A DNA stretch of 55,243 nucleotides, filler included, from Stramenopiles sp. TOSAG23-6 (Eukaryota): the NCBI GenBank assembly GCA_900128565.1. It is 2 parts of 2 records of this genome, joined end to end, with 100 filler letters (N's around TTAATTAATTAA, not from the genome) between each part and the next. Parts side by side here need not be neighbours in the genome. Positions count along the whole stretch, not along the records: positions 1 to 27,579 come from LT635980.1; positions 27,680 to 55,243 come from LT635981.1. One strand, given 5' to 3'. Shown in pieces: positions 100 through 55,151 of the stretch (position 1 is its first letter; each line of letters starts with the position of its first letter). Under the pieces are notes generated by a model. It did no database searches. It was not told the origin of the DNA and was given only the letters and a program-made list of their open reading frames with translations. The translations under genes were made by a program, and so were the position numbers.

Positions 100-826
100 G
101 TATCTGGGAAAGGCACTTTCAAATAAAGAGCAATGGAGAAAAGCTCTGCTATATGCTGAGCTCGCTGCGCGTAATTTATCAAGTGCTGCTGTACAACTAA
201 TAAACCGCGAGGCATTTGTGACAACTGAAAAAAATGAAAACACAAACCTTGTAAGTTTTCTAAATTGAATTTCGAGTTAATTTTTTTCGAACCAAATTTT
301 GTACCTAACAAATTTCGAATTTGACATTTTTTTCACAATACTTGGTTCTGTTTTCCGAAAGTTTTGTGATAATAGCAAGTTTGGTACTAATGATGAATGT
401 TTTAAAGATCTTTACAAAAGTACTTTAAATAATTCGAATTCGTATTTCGCTAAGGGCAAAGACATGTTCAAAGAACCATACTTTGCACAATATATGCGAA
501 GTGCAGTTGAAGTGTCGTATCATGATTATATCTTACCAATGCTGCCTCAATTAATCACAAAATTAGAAGAGATCAAAGCAACGCAAAGTAGCGACAATGA
601 AGCTAGTTCAAAAACGGCCAAAGCAATTAAAACGCTTCAGGGTACCATTGCTTTTGCCGATTATATCAAACCAAGTTGTAGAGGTAGTAGCGCACCACAA
701 ATTTTAACACGCTTTTTGGGATGTTACGGTGCTCTACGATTTGGAATAGCTCGAGATATCCAAGAAGTCATACAATCGGGAGTTTTTCGTGTCACCAGTC
801 CTAGTAGCCCTAGCCCTAGTCCTTAA
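100..826 (+). CDS. 3' part of a paralog of the giant helical-repeat protein (exons 100-250 and 344-826; 5' part outside window)
   Basis: Joined peptide YLGKALSNKEQWRKALLYAELAARNLSSAAVQLINREAFVTTEKNENTNL|GSVFRKFCDN aligns by eye with YMAMPLANEHSWVQCMRYLELAIFHLTNASFELLDRPKLYETMRDRDPGSMTEILHRICFDN near the C-terminus of ORF 1279-14244. HDYILP also recurs. Confidence 0.75.
251..343 (+). other. Non-canonical intron I1, probable GT...TT (93 nt)
   Basis: AAC CTT|gtaagtttt...ttttgtacctaac...cacaatactt|GGT TCT. Branch A at 308 is 35 nt before the junction and CTTG is repeated at both ends. An in-frame AAG at 361 is a possible canonical alternative. Confidence 0.65.
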
Positions 827-1278
827 ATCCCCACGATGTTTTAAGAAAAGGGTATGGAAAAGAGTATATTTTGTCTCATTTCTTGGATGATGATTGTTAT
901 TATAAAAATAGAATATAGATATATATATATGTCTTTTTTTTTACGTATTTTGAAATTTCATGTTTTTTACGCGCGTCCGTTACTTTCCGAGATCGATCTC
1001 TCGGAGATTTTGCGATCTTTGTTCATTTCGTACCATTTTTTTGTACTTAATCAATTGTTCGTTTCAGATTTCGGTTAAGTTTCTGGGTTATCCCCACATA
1101 ACCTTGTTCCATCTAGTAGTATCCAAACGCATCCTTGCTCTGTACAAGCTTTCTATATATTATAAATTCACAATCGTGCACTTTACACAATCACATAAGG
1201 TTTATTCATTACTAAACAAAGAAAAGTTACCGCAATCAACGCAATCAAGCGATTCATTCATTAATAAAACGTAGAAAT

Positions 1279-14803: not shown

Positions 14804-14848
14804 AATGATTATTAGTATTCATTATAAAAGTACAAAATATAATAGTCT

Positions 14849-20727: not shown

Positions 20728-21093
20728 TTTAATATCTGTTGGTTTCCAGCAAAATTTATCGTAAGATTTTAGCTTGAACAATCTATTTCAAATTTTCAAT
20801 TGTCGTCGTTCAGATTAGATTTGAGTATGGAGAGGAGGATCGAATGAAAGAGAGATATCTACATAGATCTCGATTTGAGATTTGATTCTTTCGAAATTCA
20901 AAATTATTTTTAGGTAATAAAATTTGGTACAAAATTATTGAACACATCAAAAAATATTTTGTTGATGGCTATAAGATCGACGCGACTTCCAAATTGCAAT
21001 AATTATCAAAAGGTGTGTGATTTATTTACCAAGTGTTCTTTCGTTTTAAGATTACGCGGGTCTGACCACTTGGTTCTTTCCTTTGAGAATAAC

Positions 21094-24000
21094 ATGGGCG
21101 ATCGTCCGAAATTATCCCAACCAATAAAGGCAAATCACCAGATACAGTTCGGAGCTCTCTCAGACGAAGCTGAGCTTTTCTGTGAATCTACAGGTTATGT
21201 GTCAGGACCTAGTACAGAGCGAAGAAAGTCCCCAAGTTTACGAAAAAGTCCACGGGCTAGTCCTTTGTCAATGAATGGAACCCATACAAGGACACCATCA
21301 CCACATATAGGGAGAAAAAGCCGGACACCCTCCCCAGGAGCTTATGGCTCAAGACGTAAACGTACCGCTCCTATCAGAAGTGCTACCAATTCCACAGGTT
21401 CTGCTTTTGAAAGGAGGCAAAGAACATTAACGAGCCCCTCCCCCCATTCACCTGCTAGATGTGGGACCAATCCTCCTGCATTTGAGAGACGCCAACGAAC
21501 GCTAACAAGTCCATCTTCACATGGAAATTCTCTTGGACAGTGTATGTTGTTCGTATCCCATTGAACCTTTATTTTTTCACATTCTTTTTTTTTTTTTCTC
21601 ACTTTAGATTTTATGAAACATTTTCACTTTATAGCAAGAAAGTCTAGAGCTCGTTCACCTGTCGGACCATTATCACAGTCAAATAGGAGGGACATTCGTG
21701 ATTCAAAATGTCCTCGAGACCCTACATCGTCTACAACTAAAGGAAAGTTGTCATCAAACGGAGCTTCTCATGAGTGGGACAGAAACAATAGCAAATCTTC
21801 GAGGAAAAGAAAGTCATCTTCATCTGACAACAGAAAAGACTTTGCTGCTGCTGTCGCCGCTGCTGCTGATGCTATAGCGCGTCAAGAAGAAGCAGCTCGA
21901 AGAAATTCTAGTTTAACGAAGAAAACGATTCCAGCAATCTCAAATGGAACAAATAAAGTCACAAATATATTGTCTGAAAGTCACACGAGTCCAAATTTAT
22001 CACCCACACCAAAAACTTCAAAAGCATCCTTATCGTGTTCAATCTCTTCTGCGTTTGATAGTTCTGTTCATCAAAATATCAGTGAGGTTGGCGAAGACAC
22101 GAAATCTGATCAAGTTTTGAAGGATAGTGGAAATATTGAATCGGAAGTTTCAAATAGTGGAAATGTAAATAATACTGGAACAAAAAGTAATAAAAATACA
22201 ACAACAACGCAAAGATATGAATCATACGAAGAAAATTATTCAGAACCTGCGACACCTAGAGATTTACAGTTTTTAAATGATAGTTCGTCTCTTTTGGGAA
22301 TGTTTCGCTCCCAAAATCGTAATAGGGTAAATAATCATAATAATACTTCAAGTACATCAGCACCAAATAGATCATTACTTCCATCAAATCTTTCCGAGCA
22401 AAAAAATAATTCAACACAATTGTCTCAAATTTCAATGAAAAGTAAAGCAACACCTCAGGGCTCATCATCTGATGATATAAGTGCAAAATCCTCAAAATCA
22501 TATTTTAAAACATCACCACCTAATTCTTATCTAAAAGCCACAAAATCCTCAAAATTATATTTTAAAACATCATCACCTCCCAATTCTTATCTAAAAGCCA
22601 CAACATCGTCTGGTGTAGTAAGTGTAAACAAAAATGATTCAAAAAATTCAAAAATTCAAAAAGCAATAGTCTCATCAACTGTGAAATGCAGCACCACAAA
22701 TTGCTCTTTAGATGTCTCAATAAATTCAAAATCGGCAAAGCTTCCTAAAGGTTTGAAATCGAACCGTGTTGTTTCTATGGATGGTACGCCCGATATTATC
22801 CAAAATGTCGTCAACAGTAAAATGAATTGTCGGGTAGGACGTCATCTGACACATCATCAAAGCTCTTTGGTAACTTCAAATGGACAGTCGAAAGTTAACC
22901 AAAATACACGTTTATCAGCATCAAGGGGTCGTCCTACATCAGGTGGAGTAGTTCTATCAAAAGTTGTATCAAGAGTTCGTGGTACTGTACCAACAATGAA
23001 AAAGAACTTTGTTAGTGCTATTAGTAGTGCAAGTAGCGCAAGTAGTGCTAGTAGTAGTGCAAGTAGTAGCACAAGCAGTGCAAGTAGTAGCGGCGGGGCT
23101 ACAGTAAATGATAGATCAATTCGCCGGTTCAAAAAACGTTCCTGGGCAGATGTTGCTGCTGGTACCGATAGAACAGACAGAGCTGTTCATACTCTAGTGC
23201 AGAGTACACAAAATTTGTCTATCAATCAATCCAATAATCAAACTGACGCCGCTCCAACTGGTGCGGAAATAAATATTAATAAGCCATGTCGAAACCATGA
23301 AATTGGATCTCGTGGAGGTTTATCTTCAACATTACACAGGAAAGAACCAATGGTTGGTGAAACTGGCGCAACTTCAGAAAATTCTCTCAGTCATGAAAAA
23401 ATTCATACAAAGGATAAATCAACACGAAATCGAAGAAATGGTTCACATACAACATCTCACTCGAACGAATATATCTTGCCACAAGAAGAATTGATAAATA
23501 GAGATGGTCATGTTGAGAAAGAAAATGTTTCGATTGTAACAGAAAAATCGGAATTTCATGCACGTAATAAATCTACACCGCAAAAAAAAAATAATTGTGA
23601 TCAGGAACATGAAATAAAGCCGTGGATAACTTCTAATGGGTCAAATCAATGTCTAAGTAGTGTTTCGAAAATAAAGCAAGGCGAGCTTCGAGATGGTGCA
23701 GTNCCCCCCCCNCCACCTGAAGTCGATACAGCTGCAGGTACAGGTAGTAGCATTAGTAACACGTGCCACAATATGAAGTGTAAGATTCATCATGATAGCA
23801 GTTACACTAAAGATGGTTTAACAAAGTCAAATGAGGTAATTAGTATTGATATGATAGGTAATATTATTTCCCGAGATTCAGAAATGAGTTTTGAAGATAT
23901 TCGTAAATTAGAAAAGATTTTAATGATGAAAAAATCTGAACTTTTAAAAACTACAAAATTAGGTACAAAGTGTGGAAGTGCAACTGATACTTCGGTTGAA

Positions 24001-27579: not shown

Positions 27580-27679
27580 NNNNNNNNNNNNNNNNNNNNN
27601 NNNNNNNNNNNNNNNNNNNNNNNTTAATTAATTAANNNNNNNNNNNNNNNNNNNNNNNNNNNNNNNNNNNNNNNNNNNN
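27580..27679. other. Artificial contig-joining spacer
   Basis: 44 N + TTAATTAATTAA (stops in all six frames) + 44 N = exactly 100 nt. Confidence 0.97.
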
Positions 27680-32375: not shown

Positions 32376-32468
32376 TCGAGGAAGACGTTAAATTTCAAAT
32401 TCATATTATTCATATACAGTACTATTATAAATATTTGAGTTTATTACAAAACTTCACGATAAAGTTAG

Positions 32469-35400
32469 TCATTTTACCTCGTCCGTTTTGATCTTCTCAT
32501 CTGCCAATTTTAAAAGGGCTGCGTTAAGCACGTCACACCATTTGGTGACAGTTCCAGGAACATTTTCCTTCCACTTTGTCAATGCGCCATTTTTATACGT
32601 TATTTCTAAGACCCTCTCTTTATCTTTTTTCTTTATCTGAAGCATGTGCAAGACAGCATATCTACCACGTACTTTTACACGATTATCATCTATCTCTTTA
32701 TAGTACACATACGATCCATCAAACTGGAACGCGCATTTCCTCCAAAACATACCGCGCTTTCGTTTAAATACAGATACTAGAATACAATCTGCATCCTTTG
32801 GTGGGTTCAACATCGCAGCATAATCGTCACTCTTTCTTCCATTCATTGTATATAAATTAGGTGGCGCAGGAGCAGCAACACCTGGTTCAGATGACACTGT
32901 ATCACTCGTATCACTAGTATACTTCGATGTCCCATTTTTTGCTGAAGGACCTAATTTTATATTTGTACGTAATGCATCACACCAGGATTCTGCTTCTTGA
33001 TTGCTTGTGGCATGTAAAACTTTTGTTTCCTTTCCTTTAGAGTTGGACCAAGTGATATAGATTTTATAACCACCATGAATTTTGGAAAAATATTTCAAAA
33101 AAAAAGTCGTTAGGTACAAAATTTACTATAAAAAAATAAATTCGAATTTGAAAAAAAATAAAACATACATGGACTTCTACATTATTAATAGTATGCACAA
33201 CGTATCGGCCTTTTGGAGGTGAATATGGATCTAACGCACAAACTTCATTTTTGTAATAATCAAGAAAACTATTTTTAATTCCCATGACAAAGTAATACTT
33301 TGTCCACTTTCGACGATGTCTTTTTTTTAAATATCCTTTCTTTGGTACTGTACCTTCTGGGATCGCATTCATAGCATTCATTGCAGAGCAAGATTTTTTA
33401 CGAACTAATGAATCTGTTGCCGTTAATTCTGTATTTCCAATCCACTTCATTGGAACTTCGGTAGTATTATTTGAAGTTTCTTGTTCGTAATTAAAATATG
33501 GTATCCATTCAAGCTTTAGTCGAATTGTTCCTTTTGTTTTCTTCTTATACCCACGTGACAATTGGCGCCAAAAATCGTGAGTATCATGGGGAGGAATATT
33601 GTTCAAAGGGATTTCACATGAACCTAGGAAATCATATCTACTATCAGCATTTGTGAGAACTTCATCATAATCAAATACATCAACTTTGAGAGTTGCATTT
33701 GCCAAATCTCTAATAAGAAATTCAGTATCTTCATTCCATTCAGGTTTTAGACTATCCCAAATGACACGTGTAGTATATGTAGCTTTTGAATCATTCCCAG
33801 TAATCGACATTACAACAAAAGCATCTGATTTAGAAATTGTGTCAGCATTATGCAAATCATTCGCTTGTACAATAGTAACTTTCAGTAAACCATCAACATC
33901 GGATGTGATTTCATCGTCATGTTTTGCATTTACAGGAGCAGAGCCACTAAAATCAATATCATATGTATTCGGCCAAACAATCATACCAACAAGAGTTTCA
34001 TGTAATATGCTTTGAATATATTCTTTGACAAGAGGTAATTCAGTAAAACAACTCGTTCTTGCAGTTAAAAAGGAAATATCAAAATCAATTTCCGGAGCGG
34101 CCATAAACCCTAAAGCAACTGCACCAAAACCAGGCATTACAGTATCACGTTTACCAAACTTAATTCGTAATATTCCTTTCATACTTATACCAGAAACGCC
34201 AAACTTCAGAGTTACCAGATCTCCAGGAGTATCAAGAGCAAAAGTAATTTCCATGCCATCGTGTGAAATCCAATCAAAATCTACATCAAGGATTGGATCT
34301 GGATGCTCGTGAGCTTCACATTGATTCTGTGAAAAACTTTTCAATCCGCCAAAATAAAATGGAACTCGACCAAAATCACACATTTCAAGTCGCAATGTTC
34401 CTAGAAAACTCGGAAGACTTTTGTTAATATTTGCAGATTCAATTCCACTTCGCACGGAATCGTTGAGACCATACCGTATAAATGGCCATAATTGACGTAC
34501 GACATTATTCAGCCAATCACAATGCTCCCAATCCGCATATTTTACGTACATTGGTAAGTGTTGCCAAAATTGTTCAACCTCCTCTCTGTTTTTTAAAGTT
34601 TGACTCAGATCAAAAATACTATCCGCCAACAACAATGGTTTCTGTTCACTGTTATGTATAAAGTGACCATCTCGAATACACCAATCATTCGTGAGTCCTA
34701 AATACAACAACAAAAAGGAAAAAAGAAGAGGCCACGCAAGGGACATATTCATGTATCCAAAGACTGAGGAGCATACATAAAATAGAACAGAATATCCAAA
34801 TTTAGGCTGATACGTCCTCACACTCGACGCTTCTCGAATGTGTGTACATTTCAACACTATTACAGGGAGACAACTTAGCAAAGTCAGGCATACATAACAT
34901 ACATTAGGAGGCAATGAAAATCCAGGCATGAAGCTATATTCATTCAGAAAGTTATATTTGGATGAATTAAATGAGCATTTGAGGACTTTACCTAAAAAAT
35001 AGAAAGGCAATGTGCTAAATGAAAAACTATGGTCAAGTATCACAGGCTTCAATTTCTCAATAACAGTAGCATGATCAAAGCTCTTGTTACTTTTTAGCTC
35101 ATTATTCAGTAACTTGTGTTGAATACTGCTTGGAGCCGATTGTACCTCTATTTTGTACGAAATATTCCTTTGTTTACTCATACCTAATATAGAAGTTTGT
35201 CTTGTATTATCAAATGATAATTCTATTACACCATCACAAGAATGATAATTTAGCCAAGTTCCATGACATTGTTTCAAAGAATCAGAGGTGACAATGTATT
35301 GTGAAAAAAAAAATACTTAAAAAAATCGTTAGGTATGAAATTTCGTATGAAAAAAAAAAAATTAAATTAGAAATTCATATAAAACGTACATATATAACGG

Positions 35401-36581
35401 CTTCACTGTAATATATTTAGACTGAGAAGTATTAGGTCTAAATGTAATTTTAAAATATATACTTTTCCCATTCAGTTCGAAAAAAGAATAATTCATACGT
35501 TTCCCAGTTGGAATTTTCACTTCAGTGGTTGAAGTTTCACCTGCATTGATAATCAAATTATGGTCTTCTTTGACTTCTGAATATGCAAAATGCTCGGCAT
35601 TTGGATCGTCTAGGATACTATCAATTTTCCATCCGCCTACCCAGCCACGATTATTTACATTCACAGGATGAACAGATTGTAATAATGAAGCTAAAACTCG
35701 TCTGGAATGATATAGTATGAAAAATATTTCAAATTTGATATTTGTTAACATTGAATTATCTATGAAAAAAAAAATTTGAAAAAATGTAAACCCTAACCCT
35801 AATGAAAACATACATGAAGTGAGTAGGCAAAAACAAATTCTTTTGTAGAATAATTATGCCAACATATTACAACATTACCATCAGCTTTAACTTGTAACCA
35901 ATCAAAATGTGGAGGTTGCTCAGCGGATAAAGTACACTTTGGTTTTATTTTGGTTTCTTTTGAATGCTGTGAAAACACGACGCCATTCATTTTGTTTTTA
36001 TCTTCACTTACCGATTTGAACTTAACTGAAAGGTGACAATAATATTGTTTAGCAAACGTTCGGAAATAAATCACATCACCCTTTTTAACGATTATTGTCT
36101 CTCTGTGACGAGTATGCTTCACAAGCTTACAATCTGGGTTTTTTTTAATGCGTGTTCCTATAGTTTTGGAGTCGGATGCTACTTTATCATTAAATATATC
36201 ACAGTGGTCAGTCAACTCAATTTCTTCTTTCAGCTCTGCATTTTCTAATACCGCAGTTTCTACTGGGAAAACACACTGTGTACAAAGCTTGATGATATCT
36301 TCCCACCTTTGATATTGTTCTTCATTCTTACAACCAAGTCTGAAGTTTTTTTTGTTGTCAAGCGTTTTTGCAACTATTTCAATTATACTTTTATCAGAGG
36401 ATATTGCCTTATCTAGTACTCGGACAGAAGAGAGATCAAATGCCTTTATAATTTCAAATTTTTCTTCATCTTTGAATAAACTTAAGTGGAAGCCGTATAC
36501 AGCACAATACACCTTTTTCCAAGCACCAACACCTGCACTGTCATCGTAATACTTCAACCAGCCAGAATGATGTTTTTCCAT
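32469..36581 (-). CDS. 1271-aa PH - GOLD-like - GOLD-like - TM - SMP - C2 - PH - PH protein, extended-synaptotagmin-like (exons 36581-35814, 35706-35390, 35293-33169, 33074-32469)
   Basis: Four ORF fragments join into one frame (768+317+2125+606 = 3816 nt) with GT...AT introns. SMP motif DWEHCDWLNNVVRQLWP, C2 motif GLLKVTIVQANDLHNAD...SDAFV, GOLD-like GVIELSFDNT, and PH domains ending in W-containing helices. Confidence 0.85.
33075..33168 (-). other. Non-canonical intron I2, GT...AT (94 nt)
   Basis: GTC CAT|gtatgtttt...ttttgtacctaac...ccaaaattcat|GGT GGT TAT. It splits a PH domain, the branch A (33110) is 35 nt from the junction, and no AG lies between them. Confidence 0.85.
35294..35389 (-). 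other. Non-canonical intron I3, GT...AT (96 nt)
   Basis: TAT AT|gtacgtttt...tttcatacctaac...cacaatacat|T GTC ACC. Branch A (35329) is 35 nt from the junction. The internal AAG would add 22 nt and frameshift. Confidence 0.82.
35707..35813 (-). other. Non-canonical intron I4, GT...AT (107 nt, or 104 nt if it ends at 35710)
   Basis: CTT CAT|gtatgtttt...tgttaac...ctatatcat|TCC AGA. The next three AGs downstream are all out of phase. Contains TTAGGGTTAGGG. Confidence 0.78.
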
Positions 36582-36913: not shown

Positions 36914-37093
36914 GATTTGATCCAATTTGGGAATTTAGCAGCACAGAGACCGAAGGAGATTCCGTCGGTTACTTTCAAGTGTATCTTTTTTTGAAAATAG
37001 AGAGATTCCGCTTGCTCTCGCACAACGCGTTAACGTAAATTTTGAAAAAGACAAAACAAAAAGGTTTTTTAATCTCCACTCAATTGAATTAAG

Positions 37094-37855
37094 ATGGCAC
37101 GAGTAAAAGCAGTCGCACGCAAAGCAAAACGCAAGTCTGTCGCACGTAAGAAGACGAGAAAAGGAGGAGCTAAGAAACGCAAGGCAGCTCCAAAACGCAA
37201 GGCAGCAAAGAAGCGCAAAGCAACCAAGAAGCGCAAAGCAACCAAGAAGCGCAAAGCAACCAAGAAGCGCAAGGCAACCAAGAAGCGCAAAGCAACCAAG
37301 AAGCGCAAGGCAACCAAAAAACGCAAAGCTGCAACAAAGCGCAAGGCTGCTCCAAAGAAAAAAGCCGGCAAAAAAAAGAAGCGTAAACATGCTCCTGGAC
37401 CTAAGCGCGCATTGTCTTCATACATGTACTACGTTAAGAAAGCTCGTGCAGGTGTGACAAAAGCTCACCCAAAATGGAAAGTCACACAAGTTGTCAAACA
37501 ACTCGGAGCTCAGTGGCGTGGTTTGTCAGCTTCTGCAAAAGCACCTTTTGAAAAATTGGCTGCTGCAGACAAAAAGCGTTATGAAAAAGCGAAGAAATCC
37601 TACAAGCCTCCTGCAGGAGCTCCTGCGAAAAAACCAAAACGTGCTTTATCTGCGTACATGTGCTTCGTCATTTCTCACCGTCCTCAATACGTCAAACGTC
37701 ATCCAAACATGAAAGCAACGAAAGTTATTTCTAACCTCGGAGCAATGTGGCGTTCCATGAGCGATAGCGACAAGAAAAGTCACCATGCAACTGCTAACAA
37801 GGACAAAGCTCGCCATGCAAAGCAAATGGCTGCTCACAAAAAGAAGCACGGATAA
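37094..37855 (+). CDS. Histone H1-like basic repeat region fused to two HMG boxes
   Basis: (KKRKAT)n N-terminus. HMG boxes PKRALSSYMYY...LGAQWRGLS...KRYEK and PKRALSAYMCF...LGAMWRSMS. Confidence 0.92.
   Translation: MARVKAVARKAKRKSVARKKTRKGGAKKRKAAPKRKAAKKRKATKKRKATKKRKATKKRKATKKRKATKKRKATKKRKAATKRKAAPKKKAGKKKKRKHAPGPKRALSSYMYYVKKARAGVTKAHPKWKVTQVVKQLGAQWRGLSASAKAPFEKLAAADKKRYEKAKKSYKPPAGAPAKKPKRALSAYMCFVISHRPQYVKRHPNMKATKVISNLGAMWRSMSDSDKKSHHATANKDKARHAKQMAAHKKKHG
37208..37315 (+). repeat. 18-bp coding tandem repeat x6 (KKRKAT)
   Basis: aagaagcgcaa(a/g)gcaacc units. Confidence 0.93.
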
Positions 37856-38147
37856 ACCAAAGGGGAAACCTCGGTGAAACCGCTTGTACAGGCGATAGTA
37901 TAATTTGATCGTTATATGATTTCGCGCATTATCTTATAATTTATATATAAAATTCGTTTTGTATGTAAAATTTTGTATATATATATTACATTCCCTTTAA
38001 ATACTTTTTTTATTTTTATAACTTAACGTTGACTATATCTAGGCATAATGCTGTAAATGTTTTAGTTTTACCTGTTATATTCAGGTCATGAAGTTTGTAT
38101 TTCCGCACCATGTCGACGTAAAATTGTTTCGCGAAAATTTATATTTA

Positions 38148-41896: not shown

Positions 41897-42270
41897 AATC
41901 TTTGCAATTTGTTCTTCAGTGAATGCAATTTCTTTTTCAGTGAATTGTTTTTCTACCAAATAAGCAATAAATGATTGCAAATTGGTATAGCCTTTATGAC
42001 CATTACATATAGTTACATTACAAGAATTTTGTCAAAGAATCTTTGCAATTTGTTCTTTGGTGAATTTTTTTTCTATCAAATGATCAATAAATGATTTCAA
42101 ATTGGTATAGCCATCTCCACCTTTGTGTATAGTTACATTACAAGAATTTTGTCCAAGAATCTTTGCAATTTGTTCTTTGGTGAATTTTTTTTCTATCAAA
42201 TGATCAATAAATGATTTCAAATTGGTATAGCCATCTCCACCTTCATGTATAGTTTCATGACAAGAATTAG
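41897..42270 (-). repeat. 120-bp (40-aa) tandem repeat, ~3 copies
   Basis: 42061-42120 is identical to 42181-42240. Encodes GGDGYTNLKSFIDHLIEKKFTKEQIAKILGQNSCNVTIHK; one copy has an in-frame TGA at 42032. Confidence 0.92.
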
Positions 42271-42839
42271 GTTTGATTACATTTGATGTCTCAATTTCCT
42301 TACCATCAGTGAAAACTAACTTTCTTGATAAGTTTGACATCCCTATTATACATGATTTTTTTGGAAGTTTATCTTGATGTATCATTCAAATCATTATGTT
42401 TGGCAACAAATTGGAGACCTCTTTATTTTTGTTCAAGGGCAATTTTACACTGACATTAATGTTTTTGTCATGTAAGTCCAGAGAAACAAACACTTTTCTT
42501 TTCTTGCCAATGGTTTGCTCCCCATTCCTAGGCCACTAGTTGGTGCCTCTTGAAAAGGATTCACAATATCAGGATTTAAGTGCAGGTCACATCTATCCTT
42601 ATGTGTAGCTTTAGTCAGATTTGTCAATTGCATACAAGCAATCAGCACCTGCCATGCCAATTCATCCAAACTAAGAGGCTTGGAATCTAATGAACACCAC
42701 TGTTGACTAAATCTTCTGCTGAGTGTTTTTGGTGTAATTTTTTTCTGTGTCACACTTTGTCCTTTATTTTTGGAGGACTTTGATTGCAAGTTCTTTAGAT
42801 GTAGATGTATTATCAAAGGCATTCAATGTAGCTGCTGCA

Positions 42840-43315
42840 GCTGCAGCTGGTAGGCTTAGATAATTCATTTGACCAATAGGTTAACTTCTTACCCTGAAAG
42901 CCAAAAAAACAATACAACAACTTCATTGAATATTTGACCTGCTGTCAAATCTTCAATTGTTTTGATTTTTTTTTGTTTTTTAGGGTTAGGGTTATATATT
43001 ATTTAAATTTTCAGCATCTGCAGCAGGTAACATTAGATAATTCATTGCAAATATCTAGAAAACTAAATTTATTCAATGTTAACTTCTTACCATACTTTTC
43101 ATTATTTTCAGCAATTCTGTTTAGATGTTGCTTTTTGTATAAGCATAAATTTGATTCTGCTGCAGCTGGTAATGTTAAATAATTCATTGTTAACTTCTTT
43201 CTGTGAAAGCCAAAAAACAATGCAACAACTTCATCAAATATTTGACCCACTGTCAAATCTTCCATTGTTTCGATTTTTTTTCCATTTTTTAGGGTTAGTG
43301 TTTGGGTTATATATA
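42840..43315. repeat. ~160-bp dispersed direct repeat (42840-42999 and 43159-43315; partial copy ~43013-43092) ending in TTAGGG-like units
   Basis: gctgcagctggta...gaaagccaaaaaacaat...ctgtcaaatcttc...ttttagggttag is shared. Confidence 0.85.
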
Positions 43316-44468
43316 TGCCAGGTGTATATAGTAGCTACTCATAGCTATAATTATAATGTTGTGTGTAATATTTTGGCAAAGCTTTCAGGTTATCCCAACA
43401 AGTTAATCATATTGCATACTATAGAATGTAAAACTTGAAGACAGTTTGAAGTCTTTTAATTCTTTTGCATCCTGTGCTTTTGCAGCAGGAGTCAATATAT
43501 CAAGTTGTGGTGGCACTCCACCTTCAATTACAATTCCAAAGTTAAAAAATCCTTGTTCAGTTAATGGCAATGTTGGTTTCAGTGCTGTCCACTGTGCATA
43601 CATATTTCTCCATTTAAGACAAGTCCAATTCTCCCATTTTTTAATGTACTTCTGGAAATAATCTGGTGTGTCTCCAAATTTATCCATTTTAACATTTGTT
43701 TTGATTTCTGAAATTAAGGATGAAGTGTTTAATGGCTGCAGTAGTATACTTGGCATATGTCTCATTGGGAAGTGCTTTTACTAACTTCACTAGGTTACCA
43801 AATTCATTCATCTGCTGTTTGTCAACTGCTATTGAAACAAACTGAGTTATTGTTTGTTAGTCAACTGCTATGAGCAGCAGAATCAACAGGCATACCTTCA
43901 ATTGAATATGCCCTTCTCCATTGATCTCCAGAACCAAACTTAATAGGAAACTCATCCATTGCAGATTTTTTTTCTAGAGAGTGTTTGATGTATTCCTCTT
44001 TTAAGGATATCCGCATATCATGTATTTGTGGCTGATTTTGATCTGCTCTTGAAACACACTTAGTTATTGTTGGTTATCATTACACAGCTGCCATAAATGT
44101 CACTGAAATGTCACTGAAATGTCACATTTCAATTCAATTTGCAACAACACCAAACTATACAGGAGTATCCATAGTGGTTACTACCTACCATTGTGGTAAG
44201 CATGATGCCATTGTGGCATCAGTGTATATATCATGAATGATGAAAGTTGTATTGTGTACTTTTTTTTCTGCAGAGAGTATTGCTAGAGTGAGAGACTCTA
44301 AGTAGAGTAAGCTGATGTAAACACATTTATTTGCTACTATTGACTTTTTTTTTGAGAACATCAAGAACAGGTTTGTACAAAAAAAATTTAATGAAACCGT
44401 TTCGTTACTTATTATTTTTGTAGTCTAGTACGAAACAAAAGTGTCAAAATCTTTATTCTTTTAATAAA

Positions 44469-47400
44469 ATGACAGAGCCACCTCCACAAGAAAACAATCT
44501 AGATGTACCACCAGGAGACAATCCCGAAGTGGATGCTCCTTCTGAAGCTATTGGGGAGAATAATGTCTCTCAACAAGAAAATGGACAGGAATTAAACGTT
44601 ACAACTGAAAATGTGGAGGAGGAGGAAGAGGATAAGGTTGAAGTAGTTTCACAAGACAACGAAACAAACCAAAAGGATGAAACACTAAAAGTCGTCACCG
44701 AGCCTGTTGTGAAGCCCCGACGTAAGTTTTCAGTAAGATCGCCACGTAAGAAAGATGAAGACATAGATAAAACAAATCGTCGTAAATTTGTTGTTGTTCG
44801 AAGTGCACGTAAAGGTGAACAAGTCAATACAAATCAAACCTCACCTTCTAAAGGCATTCGAAGAAACAAAAACAGCGGTGAAGTAGTTTCACATACTATC
44901 TTAGGCAAACCCAAACATTTTGAAAACTCTATCCGGTTGCAAAATGGTGATGAAGATACAACTTCAGTAGATATATTAGTGAGTTCGATTAGAAATCGAG
45001 CAGTCGGAGTAAACTTGATGAAAAACCGACTAACTAAAGCTCGCAGTGCACTAAAAGAAGATGATCCTCTTGTTCTTCTCAAACGTGAGCACAAATCACG
45101 GTCCCGTAGACTTTCTAGTTTGAAGAAAATTGCAGATGAGTCCAATGAAAAAGAGCAAAAAAATCATCAGCGAAAGTTAGCAAATATGTTGCCTCATCAT
45201 CGTCTAGCGCACGATCGAGAATCTCGTACTCTCCAAATGTGGAAAGAGCGTCAAAAAGACTGGACAAAGTGGAAAGGCGATACTGCAAAACGAGTAGGAA
45301 AAGACGTTGCAGATCTGGTAGTTTCACGCGCAGAAGATTATCGTGAAATGCTTGAAGAATACGCTCTCGTTCATAAATCAATGCCAACTGCTGAAAAACA
45401 GGGTTCAGATTTTTGGATGATGAGTTTACGAGGTGATGGTACACGCTATGTACCAGTAGGAAATATTTTCTCTGGTTTATTTTGTCCAATAAAAGATGAC
45501 AATGCGAATGTACCAATTATTATTCGACGTCCAGGGATGAAGCAGTCTTCGGCATCTTGGCGTGACTCTCATCAGCTTCAGCGTCGAAAACGACAGGTAG
45601 CTAAAAAAATGCAAACATTGAGACCTCATGCTGTTGAACAGAGCCACGCGGATGGTCTTATTGTATCAGGTTGTAATCTCTTTGATTGGGCATTAAACTC
45701 TACATCTACATTCTATGAAAATGCTGCTGTAGAACAGGCTTCGACAAGGGAAAGTTCTTTATATGTAGATCTTGATGGTGATGGAATCGATGATGTTACT
45801 GGCGAAACAATCCCTTCTGATTATTTAGAAGGACCACAATTGTGTCTTCGTATCATCGGTGAAAATGGAAAAGTGTGTAGTCAACATAGCACAAGCGATC
45901 CTAAATCATTACTAAATATCATTCTAGAAACAACTATTAATGAGTCAGTAGTGTCCAACATACAAGTAGAAAATACTGGAAGCTGTGCTCTATACTATGA
46001 ATGGGGGAAAGATTACGAAAATAATGCTGAAAGCAATTTAATTCCAAATGAGCAAGAGCATGTATTTTCGTGTGCTATGCGTAAGGGTGTTATTTTACCA
46101 GGTCAAACACAAGATACGGCGATTGTTTTTGCAACAACAAAAGCGGGAATATTTAGGGATTCATGGAAATTCATTACAAATCCCAATGCAAACAGTCTTA
46201 GTAAGGTAAAATTCTCTTTCACAGGTATTGCAAAGGATATTGATAAATCAGAAATACATAAACGTCTTGGAGAAGTTGTGAATAAACGCATATCTCAATC
46301 AAGCTCAAATCAAATGGATGATTCTCTTCTAAGTCGTGTTCAAACTCCTAAATCATTAGACATTGTGGGTAGTGAAAAGAGTATTTTGCATCGAGATATC
46401 TTTGAAGCTCACAATCCTGGTCTGCATTATCTTCCTCGTTACTATGCTAAATTTGAGGCATATGCCTTGAAATTGTTTTCAATTTTGAGAGTGCAGCGTA
46501 AACATGCTGAATGGGATGGATCTGTTGATACCCTGCGTGACTTACTGAATACTCTTGAGAAAAATAAAAAGATTGATGCAGCATATATTGAGATGATGCG
46601 AAGTGATGTCGAAACATTGGTACTTTGCGCATCAAAAAGACCTGCTGATTTACCTTCATTTTATCCTATGAAGCAGAAAATAGCTGAGATTGATGATACA
46701 GATGTTGCTGAAGATGGTGTAGAAGACGAAGAAGAAGACGAAGATGATGTAGAAGACGAAGCCGAAGCCGAAGATGACGCAGAAGGCAAAGCTGATGATG
46801 CTGTAGAAGGCGAAGCTGATGATGTAGAAGTTAAAGATGAAGATAATGTAGAAAGTGGAGAAAATGAAGAAAAGGAGGCAGAATGTGAAGTTGATGGTGA
46901 AGACGCTGTAGCATCTGAAAATGATAAAAATGATGAAAATCAGAATACGGATACAATTGCTCCTAATATCACGGACGAGATACAACAAAAACAGTTTAGC
47001 CCAGAAGTAACAATTGTGTCCCATGGCTCTATACTCAAGAAGAGGACGATAAATCAGCTTACTCCTGATGAAGTTAATGGGAAGAATGTATTAATTCGAA
47101 CTGACCTTAATGTAAAGTTTGAAGATGATGACGGCATCGCCCCGGAAGCACAAGGGAAAATTAGCAGAGCATGTAGAAGTGTAAAGACCGCATTGTCTCT
47201 AGGAGCAGCAAGAGTTTTACTTCTTACACATTTAGATCATTTGGGAAAAGCTGTTTCAGCCGCTTGTTTGAAAGATCCACTCGAAGATGAACTTGAGGAT
47301 GACGTTACCTTTATTAGCAATTCTGAAGATATTGTGTCATCTCTTGTAGATGATGACGAAGGAGNGATATATCTCCTAGAAAATATACAATTTCGTCCCG

Positions 47401-48860
47401 AAGATTGGAGATTATCACCAGAAGCAGTTCATGGAAGACCTGGACAAGACGAAAATCTTGCGCTACAAGATGTTGCTGGTACATATTCTGCAGTTGACTC
47501 TAGTGAAGAAGATGGAAACTGGTCTGTATTTTCTTACGGGCTGGCAATATCCCCCTCAGGTGAAAAAACAAAAGTTCGTAGAGCTAGTCGTGATCAACTT
47601 GTTCTTGACGGTGGTGGGGGCGTATTAAAACTTACATTGGGAAGACGAAATGTAGTCACGTCATTCAGGTGGTCCTCGAACGATGTTGTATATGAACACA
47701 CATCTAAAACTCCGGCTGCTATAAAATTGAAACATCCTTCATATATAGTAGAACCTGAGGAAGGCGAACCAATTTTATTAGATGAAGACTCTTTACCTCC
47801 AATACCAACACTGAAAGAAGCTAAGTTATTGGAGGAAGAATTATCCTCTATTTGTGATGTCTTTATCAACGATGCTTTATCTATCTGCGGTGGGACATCT
47901 ATCTCGTCTGTGATTCAACCTCAATCAAAAGGTCCTTGTGTGGCTGGTCATAGTATGGTACTTGAATTGAAACATGTTGCTGCACTTTTGGAGAAACCAC
48001 GCGCACCACTGGTAGTTGTAGCTGGTGGTGAAGCCACACAGCAACGCGTACATATGGTTCGTGGATTACTTGCATCGGCATCGCATGTACTTTTTGGTGG
48101 ACAATTTGGTCTTGCGCTTCTCTTAGCCCAAAACTCGAGTAATGATGGATGTATAGGTGCAACAAAAGTAGATCATTCGAAGTCACATATTGCAATGAAG
48201 CATCTTTTGCTTGATGCTCGGCGACGTGGTGTAAGATTGTTGCTTCCTACCGATTTTGTTACTGGAGATGTTGAGACTAAATCATCTAAGGAAGCTATTG
48301 TATATGAAGGCGACACCGATGAAGTTTCATTCAGTGATATCGATGAAAATAGCTTTATATTAGATATTGGTCCCAACACAACAGAATTATATACATCTAT
48401 TATTCAATCAGCAGAATGTGTAGTTATTGTTGGAGGTTTAGGTGAATTACAGTATGATGATGCTGGCCGATGTGGAACAACTGCAATACTTGACGCAGTA
48501 TCTACTCTTACAGCTGCTGGGAAACCAACACTTGTAGCTGGGTGGGATATGGTAAATTTTGTGATAGATACAGGTTTGGAGGAGTCTTTGTCCTGTGTTA
48601 GTGATGCAGGATCTGCTATGATTAAACTGCTATCTGGACAATCTTTACCAGGTTTGACAGCAATACCAGAAATTTTAGAAGGCGAAGAATCAAATGCATT
48701 TGATTTCGCGACATCTGCACAGGATGGAATTGACGTGGGTGATGAAATTGGAGTAGAAACACAGGAAGAAGAAAATAATGTTAATGAAGGAGAAGATAAT
48801 GATAATGGGAAAGAAAATAATGTGAATGAAGAAGAAGAAAATGTTGATGTGAAAGAATAA
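44469..48860 (+). CDS. MYCBP-associated-protein-like (flagellar) region fused to a degenerate phosphoglycerate kinase domain
   Basis: VENTGSCALYYEW...GVILPGQ...AGIFRDSWKFITNP is MYCBPAP-like. PGK-fold motifs GKNVLIRTDLNV, LLENIQF, DVFINDA, LLLPTDFV and ILDIGPNT follow an acidic linker. Confidence 0.8.
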   Translation: MTEPPPQENNLDVPPGDNPEVDAPSEAIGENNVSQQENGQELNVTTENVEEEEEDKVEVVSQDNETNQKDETLKVVTEPVVKPRRKFSVRSPRKKDEDIDKTNRRKFVVVRSARKGEQVNTNQTSPSKGIRRNKNSGEVVSHTILGKPKHFENSIRLQNGDEDTTSVDILVSSIRNRAVGVNLMKNRLTKARSALKEDDPLVLLKREHKSRSRRLSSLKKIADESNEKEQKNHQRKLANMLPHHRLAHDRESRTLQMWKERQKDWTKWKGDTAKRVGKDVADLVVSRAEDYREMLEEYALVHKSMPTAEKQGSDFWMMSLRGDGTRYVPVGNIFSGLFCPIKDDNANVPIIIRRPGMKQSSASWRDSHQLQRRKRQVAKKMQTLRPHAVEQSHADGLIVSGCNLFDWALNSTSTFYENAAVEQASTRESSLYVDLDGDGIDDVTGETIPSDYLEGPQLCLRIIGENGKVCSQHSTSDPKSLLNIILETTINESVVSNIQVENTGSCALYYEWGKDYENNAESNLIPNEQEHVFSCAMRKGVILPGQTQDTAIVFATTKAGIFRDSWKFITNPNANSLSKVKFSFTGIAKDIDKSEIHKRLGEVVNKRISQSSSNQMDDSLLSRVQTPKSLDIVGSEKSILHRDIFEAHNPGLHYLPRYYAKFEAYALKLFSILRVQRKHAEWDGSVDTLRDLLNTLEKNKKIDAAYIEMMRSDVETLVLCASKRPADLPSFYPMKQKIAEIDDTDVAEDGVEDEEEDEDDVEDEAEAEDDAEGKADDAVEGEADDVEVKDEDNVESGENEEKEAECEVDGEDAVASENDKNDENQNTDTIAPNITDEIQQKQFSPEVTIVSHGSILKKRTINQLTPDEVNGKNVLIRTDLNVKFEDDDGIAPEAQGKISRACRSVKTALSLGAARVLLLTHLDHLGKAVSAACLKDPLEDELEDDVTFISNSEDIVSSLVDDDEGXIYLLENIQFRPEDWRLSPEAVHGRPGQDENLALQDVAGTYSAVDSSEEDGNWSVFSYGLAISPSGEKTKVRRASRDQLVLDGGGGVLKLTLGRRNVVTSFRWSSNDVVYEHTSKTPAAIKLKHPSYIVEPEEGEPILLDEDSLPPIPTLKEAKLLEEELSSICDVFINDALSICGGTSISSVIQPQSKGPCVAGHSMVLELKHVAALLEKPRAPLVVVAGGEATQQRVHMVRGLLASASHVLFGGQFGLALLLAQNSSNDGCIGATKVDHSKSHIAMKHLLLDARRRGVRLLLPTDFVTGDVETKSSKEAIVYEGDTDEVSFSDIDENSFILDIGPNTTELYTSIIQSAECVVIVGGLGELQYDDAGRCGTTAILDAVSTLTAAGKPTLVAGWDMVNFVIDTGLEESLSCVSDAGSAMIKLLSGQSLPGLTAIPEILEGEESNAFDFATSAQDGIDVGDEIGVETQEEENNVNEGEDNDNGKENNVNEEEENVDVKE

Positions 48861-48958
48861 TAAACACGCATCATTATTATGTATATATTAGTAAATATAA
48901 CTTATTAAGTTTGTTTGTTTAGTTACAAAGAGTTTTATTGATGATATCGCATCACATT

Positions 48959-51118: not shown

Positions 51119-51360
51119 GGTAACTTTATTTGAAAAACGTATGATATTACTACGAAGATTCTTCTAAGATCTTGCGTCATCTTGCGTTTGACCAGCGGTT
51201 ACTACATTTTTGAAAAACACAAACCTGCTCGACGATGACGGAGTAAAATTATTATTTTTCATTGCGATTGCATTCGTATTCTATTATGAATATCTTGTAG
51301 TAGTTCAAGACAAGTTCTAAAAATATAGCTAATTTAGAGTGATATATTTAATATTTTAGC

Positions 51361-52536
51361 ATGAAAATTAAATTGCTATTTGCATGTCTCTCTATTTTAT
51401 GTCAACGTATAATATCAAAGTCAAACTCAACAATTTTGGACGCTTCTATAGATAAAGTGAAGGGGGAAAATACTTTTTTTAATAAGTGGAACAACCTTGA
51501 AGAATTACAAACCTTTTATGATTCTTTGGCACGTCGTTCTCCGGATATTCTCAAGAAGCAAGAAATTGGTAAAACAGTAAACGGGAATAAAATATTTGGA
51601 TATCGATTAAACTACGATAAAGACGATAATGTAGTACCAAAACCCAAAATTTATATTCAAGGTCTTGCACACGCGCGAGAGTGGATTACTGGTAGTGCTG
51701 TTGCATATATTATAGCAAGTTTTGTGGAAGCGGCAAAGGTTGTTAAGGAAAACGCAAAAATTGAAATGGGAAATTCAACCACTATACCAACTGAGGAAGT
51801 GAGTGATCACATGAGAAGAATTATTGAACTAATTCCCAAAATTGAGATAGTAGCTGTTCCTATAGTAAACCCTGATGGCTATTCATTCTCATGGACTCCG
51901 AAGCACAGAAGATGGAGAAAAAATAGAAATGGTTCTGGAGTTGACCTAAACCGCAATTATGATGTTCATTATAATCAAGAAACTAATAAAGAAATGCTTC
52001 AAAGACTGAAAGATAAAAACTCAGATAATTTCTCTGGTAATTCCGCCTTTTCTGAAGCAGAGACAAAAGCTATTCGCGATTTTATCACAAGTATAGCTCA
52101 AAATACAAAAGAAGAAAAAAATTCGTTTATTTTAGGCATAGATTTTCATAGCTATGGTTCCAAAGTACTTCGCCCTTATGGTTTTCAGAGTGCAGATAAA
52201 GGCACTCCATCTGATGAAAAAAAGTTAAAAATCCTTGGGGATAAAGCTGCTGAGGCCATGACAAAAATTCATGATCATAAATATGAGTCAGAACATGCTG
52301 CAGAAAATATTAGATTTGAAGGCACTGGTGGTGCTGATGATTGGTTGATTGAAAAAGCAGGTATGGATTCTTTTACGATTGAACTTCGGGGCACTTCTTT
52401 TGAACTTCCGACCGAAAGCATAAAGCTTGCAGTTGATGAAGCTCTTGAAGGATTACTTACAATGGCAAAACTAGCGCTTAGTATACAATCAGTTGGTATG
52501 AACAGAAATATGTACCATACATCTAGTGATAAATGA
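51361..52536 (+). CDS. Secreted M14 zinc carboxypeptidase
   Basis: Signal peptide; HAREW, NPDGY, RWRKNR, GVDLNRNY, DFHSYG and FTIELR. Confidence 0.95.
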   Translation: MKIKLLFACLSILCQRIISKSNSTILDASIDKVKGENTFFNKWNNLEELQTFYDSLARRSPDILKKQEIGKTVNGNKIFGYRLNYDKDDNVVPKPKIYIQGLAHAREWITGSAVAYIIASFVEAAKVVKENAKIEMGNSTTIPTEEVSDHMRRIIELIPKIEIVAVPIVNPDGYSFSWTPKHRRWRKNRNGSGVDLNRNYDVHYNQETNKEMLQRLKDKNSDNFSGNSAFSEAETKAIRDFITSIAQNTKEEKNSFILGIDFHSYGSKVLRPYGFQSADKGTPSDEKKLKILGDKAAEAMTKIHDHKYESEHAAENIRFEGTGGADDWLIEKAGMDSFTIELRGTSFELPTESIKLAVDEALEGLLTMAKLALSIQSVGMNRNMYHTSSDK

Positions 52537-52693
52537 TGGAAATATTTCATTTCAGGGATAGCAATTAGCACGTAAATAAACTAAATTATAAATAGGGAAA
52601 AATAATTTGTTTAAAACTTGAATTTATTTGTTTCCCTTGAGTAATAACAGCCTAGCAATGTACAACGCTTCAACGGCTTCATTAATCACTTTA

Positions 52694-53383
52694 TCAATCA
52701 CTCTGCGGAAACGCTTCAACGGCTTGATTAATCACTTCATTCCTCACTTTGTGGAAATCAAGTCTACTAGCCTCACGTTTCAAATAATCGTAACTTTCGC
52801 GGGAAAGCTTACTAGCCTCTTTTAAAATATTGATATACTTAAAAGTGAGATGCTCTATATCCCCAATGTGATCCTCATATAAAAATTGCGAAAACGGGTC
52901 AGAACCAAACAATTTTGAAATTTCCGGTCGCCTTGTACGAAAAAAATGAAATCGTACTTTTATAAATTCAAAACGTTCACGAAGATCCTGCATTTTTCCC
53001 TGTAAATTCTTCACTTGCCTATCTAATAAAGGTTCTACTTTCAGAGTGGGAGACTCATCCTTCAGACTGCTAGACTCATCCGTTGTAGAATATAGTTCAC
53101 GAAGTTCTCTGTCTTCTATGGTTCCTTCGGAAGACTCATAAGATAAAGGTTGTGTGGGAAGTTTGTAACGAGCGTTTTGGATACGTTCTCGAGTTTCTTG
53201 CGGTGTTTCAAAAGGACCTGTGCTAGTATATTGAAGTTCACTTCTCCCACTAGTAGTCGGATGATGATGTTGTTCGTCTAGAGGTTTTGGAGCTTTTTGT
53301 AGTCGTGGGATAGCTCCAGTAGAAATTTGAGCTATCAGAAAGAAAGCTAAAGCAATATAGCTGTAATGTGAGAATCTCTTCAT
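52694..53383 (-). CDS. Hypothetical secreted protein
   Basis: Signal-like N-terminus MKRFSHYSYIALAFFLIAQISTG; helical C-terminal half; no family recognised. Confidence 0.65.
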   Translation of the reverse strand: MKRFSHYSYIALAFFLIAQISTGAIPRLQKAPKPLDEQHHHPTTSGRSELQYTSTGPFETPQETRERIQNARYKLPTQPLSYESSEGTIEDRELRELYSTTDESSSLKDESPTLKVEPLLDRQVKNLQGKMQDLRERFEFIKVRFHFFRTRRPEISKLFGSDPFSQFLYEDHIGDIEHLTFKYINILKEASKLSRESYDYLKREASRLDFHKVRNEVINQAVEAFPQSD

Positions 53384-53752
53384 TTCTGTAAGAAGTTGCA
53401 AGTCTCAACAAGCTTCAAATAATTCACCAAGAAGTACCGTACTCTTCTTTTTAAAGTTTGTTTTTTGAGTTCCTTGCACTGACTTTCAATGACTTTCAAC
53501 TGTCCTGTTTGTTGGATTTTTCGTGTTTGTTTGAAATCGATGGATTGACACGGTCATATCACGCGATGACACACGATGACACATAAGAAAGTCTTCTTCT
53601 TCTCCACAAGTTGCGACTCATTGTCGCATTTTTGATTGGTTTATACGACCACTGTGTTGAGTGGATCGTATATTTCTATTTACGTGGATACATTGCCTGG
53701 TATAGTTATAATACTGTACGCGTAGTATTTGGATTGTAGGTGTAGTACAATC

Positions 53753-55151
53753 ATGTTTGAGAAGAGTCTACATGACCTCGTCAAGGGTATACGTTCCCAC
53801 AAACGCGACGTAAGTGGTTATATCGACAAGTGTTTGTCGGAAATTAAAGTTGAGTTGCGTACAACAAATCCAAAGCTCAAAGTTCAGGCTATTCAAAAGT
53901 TGGTATATTTACAAGTTCTCGGGTATAGTGCGAATTGGGCTTCTTTTCATGTAGTTGAGGTTATGGCCCAGCCCTTATTTAAGCATAAGCGTATGGGATA
54001 TCTCGCAGCGGAGCAATGTTTCACCCCTCAAACAGATGTAATTCTACTGTGTACAAACTTACTTAAGAATCAGTTACATGCTTCAAATCAATATGAAATA
54101 GGATTGGCAATAAGTTGCCTGTCAAATATTGTCACTAAAGATTTGGCGAGAGATCTTCTAGGAGATATAGTTGCCATGTTAAGTAGTACTAGACCATATA
54201 TACGAAAGAAGGCCGTGCTAGTATTATATAAACTGTATCTTGCATACCCACAAGCCCTACGTCTATCATTCGAAAATTTAAAACAGAAACTTGAGGACGT
54301 CGATCCTTCAGTTGTTTCCTCTGCCGTTAATGTAATTTGCGAGTTATCGCGTAAAAACCCTAAAAATTATTTATCTTTGGCGCCACAGTTTTTCAAGTTA
54401 CTATTAACATCTACAAATAATTGGATGCTTATTAAAGTTGTGAAACTACTTGGTGAGTTGGTGTCAGAAGAGCCTCGATTAGCTCGGAAAATTTTACAGC
54501 CACTAGCACGTTTGATCAGAGCCACACCGGCAAAGTCTTTAATGTACGTTCTTATCGTGAAATTTCCACCTAAATTTTATTTTTCATAGAAAATTTTGTA
54601 CCTAACAAATTTCGAACGTAAAATATTTTGTAAAAATCATGTACGAATGTGTTCAAACTGTGACAACTTCCCTTAAATATACAGTACGTCAAGATGGAAA
54701 ACAAGCAAAAAATGTTGCTGAAATTGCTTCTCTTTGTATGGAAAAGTTGAAGGATTTCATTGAAGATCCTGATCAAAACTTGAAATATTTAGGTTTGATT
54801 GGTTTAGCCAATTTGATGCGCTCCCATCCAAAATTAGTATCAAAGCATAAAAGTCTTGTCCTTGAATGTCTTGATGATGGTGACGTCACTATTCGTCTTA
54901 GAGCTTTAGAATTAGTGACTGGTATTGTAACAAAACGAAGTCTTCAAAATATTGTTGACAAATTAATGCAACATTTGAGCTGTGCTGAAGGTCAATATCG
55001 TGATGAATTGATTAGTAAGATTGTGTTTATTTGTAGTCGAAATAAGTATTCATTTGTTTTAGATTTTGCGTGGTATATTACGATTCTTATAGATTTGGCG
55101 TATACAAAAGGAATGAAGCAAGGTGATCTTATCGCGGAACAATTAATTGAT
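53753..55151 (+). CDS. AP3D1: AP-3 complex subunit delta, 5' part (exons 53753-54543 and 54641-55151; continues beyond window)
   Basis: MFEKSLHDLVKGIR, NNWMLIKVVKL, EPRLARK, AKSLM|YECVQTV, DQNLKYLGL and DFAWYI. Confidence 0.95.
54544..54640 (+). other. Non-canonical intron I5, GT...AT (97 nt)
   Basis: TCT TTA AT|gtacgtt...aattttgtacctaac...taaaaatcat|G TAC GAA TGT restores the conserved SLxYEC motif. Branch A (54605) is 35 nt from the junction; the first downstream AG is at 54684. Confidence 0.9.

Follow-up and report, generated by a model that had tools for sequence, protein, structure and literature searches.

Introner-like introns of a high-copy family in a stramenopile genome have GT donors and CTAAC branch sites but end in AT or TT

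Introduction

How is the end of an intron found when no AG marks it? The question is raised by a 55,243-nucleotide (nt) stretch of DNA from Stramenopiles sp. TOSAG23-6 (assembly GCA_900128565.1; records LT635980.1 and LT635981.1, joined through filler letters), the whole of which is referred to here as the window. Seven copies of an intron, I0 to I6, are found in three of its genes, I1 to I5 being complete and I0 and I6 cut by the window ends. In the family that they form, the GT and CTAAC signals are of the textbook kind, but the introns end in AT or TT, at least 35 nt from the branch site. An initial annotation had observed that the branch adenosine is 35 nt from the last intron base in four of the copies, and had asked whether a ruler has replaced the recognition of AG. 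Here we describe evidence supporting a choice of the 3′ splice site that is independent of AG, and consider whether the constant distance reflects counting by the spliceosome or the common descent of the copies. Introners, repeated introns of this general kind, are the main known route of burst-like intron gain.

Splicing at junctions that lack AG

The junction observed in RNA is that of I3 (35389-35294, minus strand, 96 nt), which begins with GTACGT, carries CCTAAC with its branch A at 35329 and ends with CACAATAC followed by AT. The window was compared with seawater contigs from three RNA runs (X5, X6 and X8) and one DNA run (X3), the depths quoted for these runs being summed contig depths and not copy numbers. 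A single metatranscriptome contig from X5 joins 35293 to 35390, skipping exactly the 96 nt 35294-35389 (depth 7.1; shorter side of 50 letters; ambiguous by 2 letters; flagged 'between: not known'). The same joint is found in 0 contigs of X6 and X8 and in 0 contigs of the DNA run X3, and no intron-less DNA form is present among those listed for X3. Between the branch and the end of I3 lies an AG, at 35317-35316, that is out of frame and is bypassed in the spliced contig.

Protein comparison supports the junctions of both I3 and I2 (33168-33075, minus strand, 94 nt), the latter beginning with GTATGT, with CCTAAC (branch A at 33110) and an end of CCAAAATTC followed by AT. The only good homolog of the gene containing I2 to I4, P0001 (1514 amino acids, 42% identity), aligns ungapped across the two introns, with 12 residues between ...KP and a conserved C at the I3 junction and, at the I2 junction, 20 residues between a conserved GRY and W in both proteins. 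A second relative, P0002, shows 29% identity over 24% of the query. Use of the nearest in-frame AG as the acceptor of I2 would lose 15 residues and reduce the global score against P0001 from 2024 to 1982.

I5 (54544-54640, plus strand, 97 nt; GTACGT, CCTAAC with branch A at 54605, end AAAAATC followed by AT) interrupts the AP-3 delta gene at a position that can be placed on a solved AP-3 delta chain, 9c58_D. Exon 1 closes with a complete residue that corresponds to residue 275 of this chain, the split codon supplies residue 276 and the first complete residue of exon 2 corresponds to residue 277, and the Pfam Adaptin_N profile runs unbroken across the junction. The AP-3 delta gene around I5 is without RNA contig cover (bins 51252-53919 at or below 0.11), which makes the RNA runs uninformative on its splicing. 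Three non-AG junctions are thus independently supported, by the RNA contig for I3, by the homolog for I2 and I3 and by AP-3 delta for I5. In I2, I4 (35703-35702) and I5 (54683-54684) use of the closest AG would break the frame, as would use of the AG within I3.

For the two remaining complete copies, as for the three above, the reading frame on either side is consistent with the proposed junctions. I4 (35813 to 35707 or 35710, minus strand) is the most diverged, with GTATGT, an insert of TTAGGGTTAGGG and GTTAAC in place of the usual branch motif (A at 35745). As the initial annotation had proposed, it ends either with CAT, 38 nt from the branch, or with TAT, 35 nt from the branch; both ends are in frame. 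No RNA contig spans I4, which is as uninformative on its splicing as the low cover around I5, and the reading frame is the basis for placing its junction; on the choice between the two ends, the score against P0001 is 2034 with the end at 35710 and 2024 with the end at 35707, a weak difference towards the former. I1 (251-343, plus strand, 93 nt; GTAAGT, CCTAAC with branch A at 308) ends with CACAATAC followed by TT and is preceded by an exon ending in CTT, its removal restoring the frame. It is the weakest case, as it may instead use an in-frame AG at 360-361 and be a 111-nt intron. The placing at 343 comes from the reading frame and from likeness to the family, the CACAATAC block at its 3′ end being identical to that of the RNA-confirmed I3. 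For the gene containing I0 and I1 no homolog was found, with 0 of 23 candidates passing and 0 matches among 1.84 billion representatives.

The two truncated copies bear on the use of AG. I6 (55152-55243, plus strand), of which the 5′ part is present, has GTATGT, CCTAAC (branch A at 55209) and an AG at 55221-55222. One RNA contig from X8 matches the exon up to 55155, after which come 110 letters with no likeness to the window and an open frame. The donor of I6 is therefore used, its acceptor lies past 55243 and the AG at 55221-55222 is bypassed. I0 (1-99, plus strand), of which only the 3′ part is present as its 5′ side is cut by the window start, has CCTAAC at 51-56 (branch A at 55), an AG at 67-68 and a presumed end of ...AAAATACAT at 99. 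The G of the AG in I0, I3 and I6 is in each case 13 nt past the branch A. The proposal that closer AGs are skipped therefore stands for I3, where the RNA contig shows the bypass, and by inference for I6; in I0 the AG is equally real. Taken together, the data support a choice of 3′ splice site that is independent of AG. A 3′ signal made up of AG or of the terminal dinucleotide can be excluded: AT and CAT at other distances are unused, and the last two bases vary with the site of insertion.

Upstream of the branch the copies are uniform in their signals. The donors conform to GTA[A/T/C]GT, with GT at the start of all six copies that have a 5′ end, and CCTAAC is present in six of the seven. The branch A positions given here are those predicted from the branch motif. 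An extended branch motif, GTACCTAACAA, allowing at most one mismatch, gives 6 matches in the window against 0.72 expected, a number that 0 of 100 shuffles reach; one of the 6, at 3070 within an open reading frame (ORF) of 4342 codons, is no intron, and I3 and I4 are not captured by the pattern. The tight spacing of donor and branch that had been noted was confirmed, at 57 nt in I1, 58 in I2, 60 in I3, 61 in I5 and 57 in I6. The distance in I4 is longer, 68 nt, because a telomere-like repeat is inserted near its 5′ end, at 35789-35800 (CCCTAACCCTAA on the plus strand, which is TTAGGGTTAGGG in the sense of the intron). A perfect 12-nt palindrome, TTTCGTACGAAA, is located just upstream of the branch motif of I0 (32-43) and I6 (55186-55197) and is degenerate in the other copies.

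A single high-copy family

All seven introns belong to a single introner-like family of high copy number. They align over their full length with a mean column identity of 63%, and all seven lie within coding ORFs in the sense orientation. The 35-nt tails that follow the branch A in I1, I2, I3 and I5 align in register and ungapped, with 20-24 identities of 35 over the six pairs, compared to a mean of 12.4 (standard deviation 2.5, maximum 22) in 2000 shuffles. The remark that the sequences between branch and junction differ was consequently overstated.

Their abundance is evident from the seawater contigs, the summed contig depth on the intron parts being 5518 in RNA (X5) and 15543 in DNA (X3), against about 6-8 in DNA on the flanking genes. 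In X3 the similarity of 27 DNA contigs to the window breaks off at 35294, where I3 has its last base, and their flanking sequences are mutually different (agreement 0.39). Since the window both begins (1-99) and stops (55152-55243) inside copies of the family, the assembly was probably broken at the high-copy intron element at both of its ends. A metagenome scan with a 16-base core gave at least 119 matches at at least 118 loci; none of the matches listed is flanked as the family copies are, and a GTANGT of any kind precedes only 4 of them by 60 nt or less, in no case at the family spacing. In collections of genome contigs and viral contigs the search for further copies returned 3 and 1 chance matches only.

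The constant distance of 35 nt

Recalculation of the distance from the branch A to the last intron base gave 35 nt in I1, I2, I3 and I5, as had been reported. As the four tails are homologous in register, equal lengths are expected from descent without insertions or deletions; moreover, because these are related copies in the same register, the four cases are not independent and amount to approximately one observation inherited four times. Over the upstream 58 nt or so of the same four copies there are at least 3 length changes, from which about 1.8 would be expected in 35 nt, and the probability of seeing none is about 0.17, a rough estimate that is not significant.

Longer copies also exist. 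I0 and I6 keep the terminal 3′ block of the family and have 9-10 extra bases, which places the block about 44-46 nt from the branch. The last 21 nt of I0 are in common with I2, and I0 has 9 more bases after its branch, so that the family end is at +44. It is this common 21-nt block that indicates the end of I0 at 99, 44 nt past the branch A, the upstream exon being outside the window. The earlier impression that the copies at the window ends are longer, at about 44 nt, is thus borne out for I0, given this presumed end, and I6 is of the same long type.

Among the other copies sampled from seawater, as DNA and as RNA, length variants of one base between the branch and the intron end are frequent. 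An A is added after 35318 in 17.2 of a depth of 114.8 (3 contigs, X3). A base is missing at 55224 in 10335 of 30326 (19 contigs, X3) and in 3644 of 19217 (14 contigs, X5), which is about one third of the DNA depth and one fifth of the RNA depth. Such variants weigh against a strict ruler, because coding copies that carry them would be frameshifted under one.

A strict ruler, by which the spliceosome, once the branch has formed, would cut at 35 nt past the branch A regardless of sequence and AG would be irrelevant, fits a number of these observations. The distance is 35 nt in all four well-defined copies and can be 35 nt in I4, where the ungapped register and the homolog score point mildly to 35710. 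AT at other distances and the CAT ending 19 nt past the branch in I1 are unused, the AG at +13 is bypassed, and the end bases vary between AT and TT and so cannot be the signal. The four cases, however, come from related copies that align in register, the lack of any length change over their 35 nt does not reach significance, the family end block of I0 sits at +44 and one-base length variants are frequent among the copies. An end at +35 in I6 would also make T 55243 the second-to-last intron base, breaking the repeat of the exon end (here AT) that is seen in five of five introns. The arguments from I0, I6 and the one-base variants are indirect. We therefore regard the strict ruler as somewhat disfavoured and, taken as an explanation of the whole, unlikely. 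It is similarly doubtful that the major spliceosome has dropped AG recognition here and makes the second cleavage along a fixed path of 35 nt from the branch adenosine. If this were true, the count of 35 nt would be a ruler like that of group II or U12 introns operating on yeast-like GT...CTAAC introns, and it would allow a mobile intron to be excised precisely from any insertion site. The best explanation of the constant 35 nt is that it is the family architecture of a short subfamily, inherited without insertions or deletions.

Selection of the 3′ site by structure, the other route suggested alongside distance, found no support. The predicted RNA folds are no better than those of shuffled sequences (z = 0.73, 0.50, -1.62, -0.22 and -1.89), with no common pairing of the ends.

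Repeats at the intron borders

Each of the five complete introns ends in the same dinucleotide as the exon upstream of it, AT in four and TT with TT in I1, and the direct repeats across the two borders total 2-7 nt in each of the five. These repeats look like a target-site duplication, and a preference for sites ending in AT would give the same appearance.

One alternative is that the family has spread through RNA, by reverse splicing followed by reverse transcription, with the terminal ATs being a preferred insertion context and not a duplication. It would account for the absence of inverted repeats, for the sense orientation of all seven copies within genes and for repeats of 2-7 nt, a range unlike the fixed stagger of a transposase. 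Reverse splicing would not, however, copy the end of the exon into the intron, as is seen with TT and TT in I1; selection too would leave only copies in the sense orientation, and the comparison is confined to 5 complete copies. On balance we find spread through RNA improbable, and consider a transposon-like origin of the introns more likely.

It is very improbable that both junctions lie 2 nt further upstream, giving the same mRNA from AT-AC-like introns that start with AT (TT in I1) and end with C, since, while the RNA joint is ambiguous by 2 letters and four of the five introns would then start with A and all five end with C, the invariant GTA[A/T/C]GT would occupy +3 to +8 and match no known 5′ site consensus, I1 would begin with TT, and the ends would not be uniform, with AC in 2 introns and TC in 2 (I4 aside).

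Discussion

The observations are probably best accounted for by a mobile family of the introner type, in which the non-AG 3′ ends are set by the end of the element and the 35-nt architecture is inherited. In this model the copies would represent a single family of mobile introns, short (about 93-107 nt) and of high copy number, that resides in the genes of a marine protist whose DNA is AT-rich and dense in genes. Each of them would supply its own optimal 5′ splice site (GTA[A/T/C]GT) as its first bases and its own optimal branch site (CCTAAC) 57-61 nt beyond the donor. The intron would end two bases past a conserved terminal block (...AAT[A/T]C), and these final two bases, AT or, in I1, TT, would duplicate the end of the upstream exon in the manner of a target-site duplication. 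Excision of the element with one copy of the repeat would then restore the original reading frame exactly. The second step of splicing would take place at a non-AG site, past the AG that is 13 nt downstream of the branch. We infer that the position of the cut is set by where the element ends, with the terminal block lying within a range of distances from the branch that is tolerated, rather than by counting exactly 35 nt.

Several points weigh against this account. The RNA proof is for one junction, that of I3, in one contig from one run. In I0 and I6, the two long copies, the acceptors are presumed ones, and the one-base variant copies may be unspliced or come from other organisms. The border repeat is specific to the locus in I1 only (TT with TT), and a preference for AT sites would look alike. 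Terminal inverted repeats are absent, the 3-7 of 14 terminal matches being equalled by 210-1812 of 2000 shuffles. For I4 the ungapped register and the 10-point difference in homolog score mildly favour the 35-nt TAT end, as the ruler predicts. Finally, the statements about the family rest on 7 copies.

Introners that carry their own 5′ site and co-opt the 3′ site from the duplicated target have been described, for example the Chrysochromulina family (Gozashti et al, 2022, bioRxiv 10.1101/2022.06.06.494994). As far as the part of that preprint used here describes them, the Chrysochromulina-type introners resemble the present family in being short repeated introns at unrelated gene sites, with the 5′ site at the first base of the element, a duplicated target as the 3′ end, no inverted repeats and an mRNA restored on excision. 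In the same part of the text, the site that they co-opt is a normal AG, whereas here the repeat is AT or TT and the end is without AG; here, in addition, a strong CCTAAC branch site is part of the element. As for the features by which introners are recognised, many similar copies are present at unrelated loci (63% identity, high depth, differing flanks) and they are spliced with the frame restored (from RNA for I3, the homolog for I2 and I3, AP-3 delta for I5 and the frame only for I1 and I4); terminal inverted repeats, which are found only in some introner families, were not found. With regard to recent gain, which is judged by presence or absence between strains or relatives, the protein collections contained no close relative.

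Transposon-derived introns with non-canonical ends occur in Fritillaria borealis, Amoebophrya, Polarella and euglenids (PMC11282704). Within the portion of that article drawn on, they are like the present introns in their origin from mobile elements, in the direct repeats at their borders and in a spliceosome that tolerates ends other than GT-AG. Most of the introns in this portion also lack GT (AG-AC or AG-AT in Fritillaria) or, in euglenids, pair their ends, while the introns described here have a textbook 5′ site and branch, depart only at the 3′ end and have no predicted pairing of the ends. By comparison with the euglenid type, which has no GT-AG and base-paired ends, GT is present in six of six copies and no end pairing is shared.

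In intron-poor eukaryotes (Yarrowia, Trichomonas, Giardia and some yeasts) the distance from branch to AG is constrained (Irimia and Roy, 2008, PMC2483917). According to the sections of that paper considered, an intron-poor genome, a near-invariant branch of the CTAAC type and tight spacing from the branch to the 3′ end are common to these organisms and the present one. The same sections give a distance of 2-10 nt with a terminal AG, whereas the present introns have a distance of 35 nt or more, lack the AG and owe their uniformity to being copies of one element. With respect to a fixed short distance from branch to AG, the branch consensus is present in six of seven copies, there is no terminal AG and the AG at +13 is bypassed in I3.

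U12-type introns have a 5′ site of [A/G]TATCCTT and a branch that is 10-15 nt from the 3′ end. According to a report attributed to Dietrich et al. in 2001, it is the spacing from the branch that selects their 3′ site, and their terminal dinucleotides are loose. The idea of a 3′ site that is defined by distance and independent of AG is what the present introns have in common with these minor introns. The 5′ sites of the present introns, GTAAGTTT, GTATGTTT, GTACGTTT and GTACGTTC, depart from the U12 consensus, and the branch is 35 nt from the end. In the literature searched, which did not cover supplementary tables that may list this organism, there was no introner family with GT...CTAAC and AT or TT ends.

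Surveys that accept only GT-AG or GC-AG annotations would overlook a family of this kind, and in uncultured protists of this sort the predicted genes will be split or misinterpreted where such introns occur. For the mechanism of splicing, the family shows that a spliceosome of the major type can complete exon ligation without the AG contact that is held to be central in structural work. A full genome, together with existing seawater transcriptomes, would make the definition of the 3′ site without AG testable on hundreds of natural variants.

Other features of the window

The window is gene-dense eukaryotic DNA of 36% GC, with uninterrupted ORFs of up to 4342 codons. Its genes include those for AP-3 delta, a lipid-transfer-type protein with SMP, C2 and PH domains, LSG1, an HMG-box protein, a MYCBPAP-PGK fusion and an M14 peptidase. 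Among Atlas clusters, those closest to LSG1 are from Oomycota and those closest to the M14 peptidase from Arthropoda and Oomycota, and no Rfam match is present anywhere in the window. The DNA of the window is also found in a small single-organism data set, in seawater metagenomes and in poly(A) metatranscriptomes. At 44424-48857 (plus strand) a single ORF of 1478 codons encodes a MYCBP-associated-protein domain and a phosphoglycerate kinase domain, which suggests that the fusion serves glycolysis in the flagellum and that the organism is flagellated.

Translation in the window follows the standard genetic code. Reassignment of TGA, which two in-frame TGAs had raised as a possibility, was rejected, as the long ORFs contain no TGA and several genes end on TGA. 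One in-frame TGA, at 42032-42034, lies between two minus-strand ORFs in the same frame, in a region (41940-42140) where a tandem repeat of about 120 nt is located within a run of minus-strand ORFs. Two runs of 44 Ns, at 27580-27623 and 27636-27679, are positioned where two ORFs on opposite strands meet.

The HMG-box gene (37028-37931) has by far the highest RNA contig cover, in three runs, and its RNA contigs stop near 37928-37931 with adapter letters. A GTATGT...CTTAAC...AG stretch at 37961 is probably no intron, being beyond the end of these contigs. A candidate ordinary intron outside the family is present on the plus strand at 21542-21607 (or to 21634), with GTATGT, a long T tract and an end of TTTAG (or TATAG). 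Its 66-nt and 93-nt versions are both in frame, and it includes the TGA at 21562 that splits the same-frame ORFs 20914-21561 and 21565-25533. If it is real, introns ending in AG coexist with the non-AG family.

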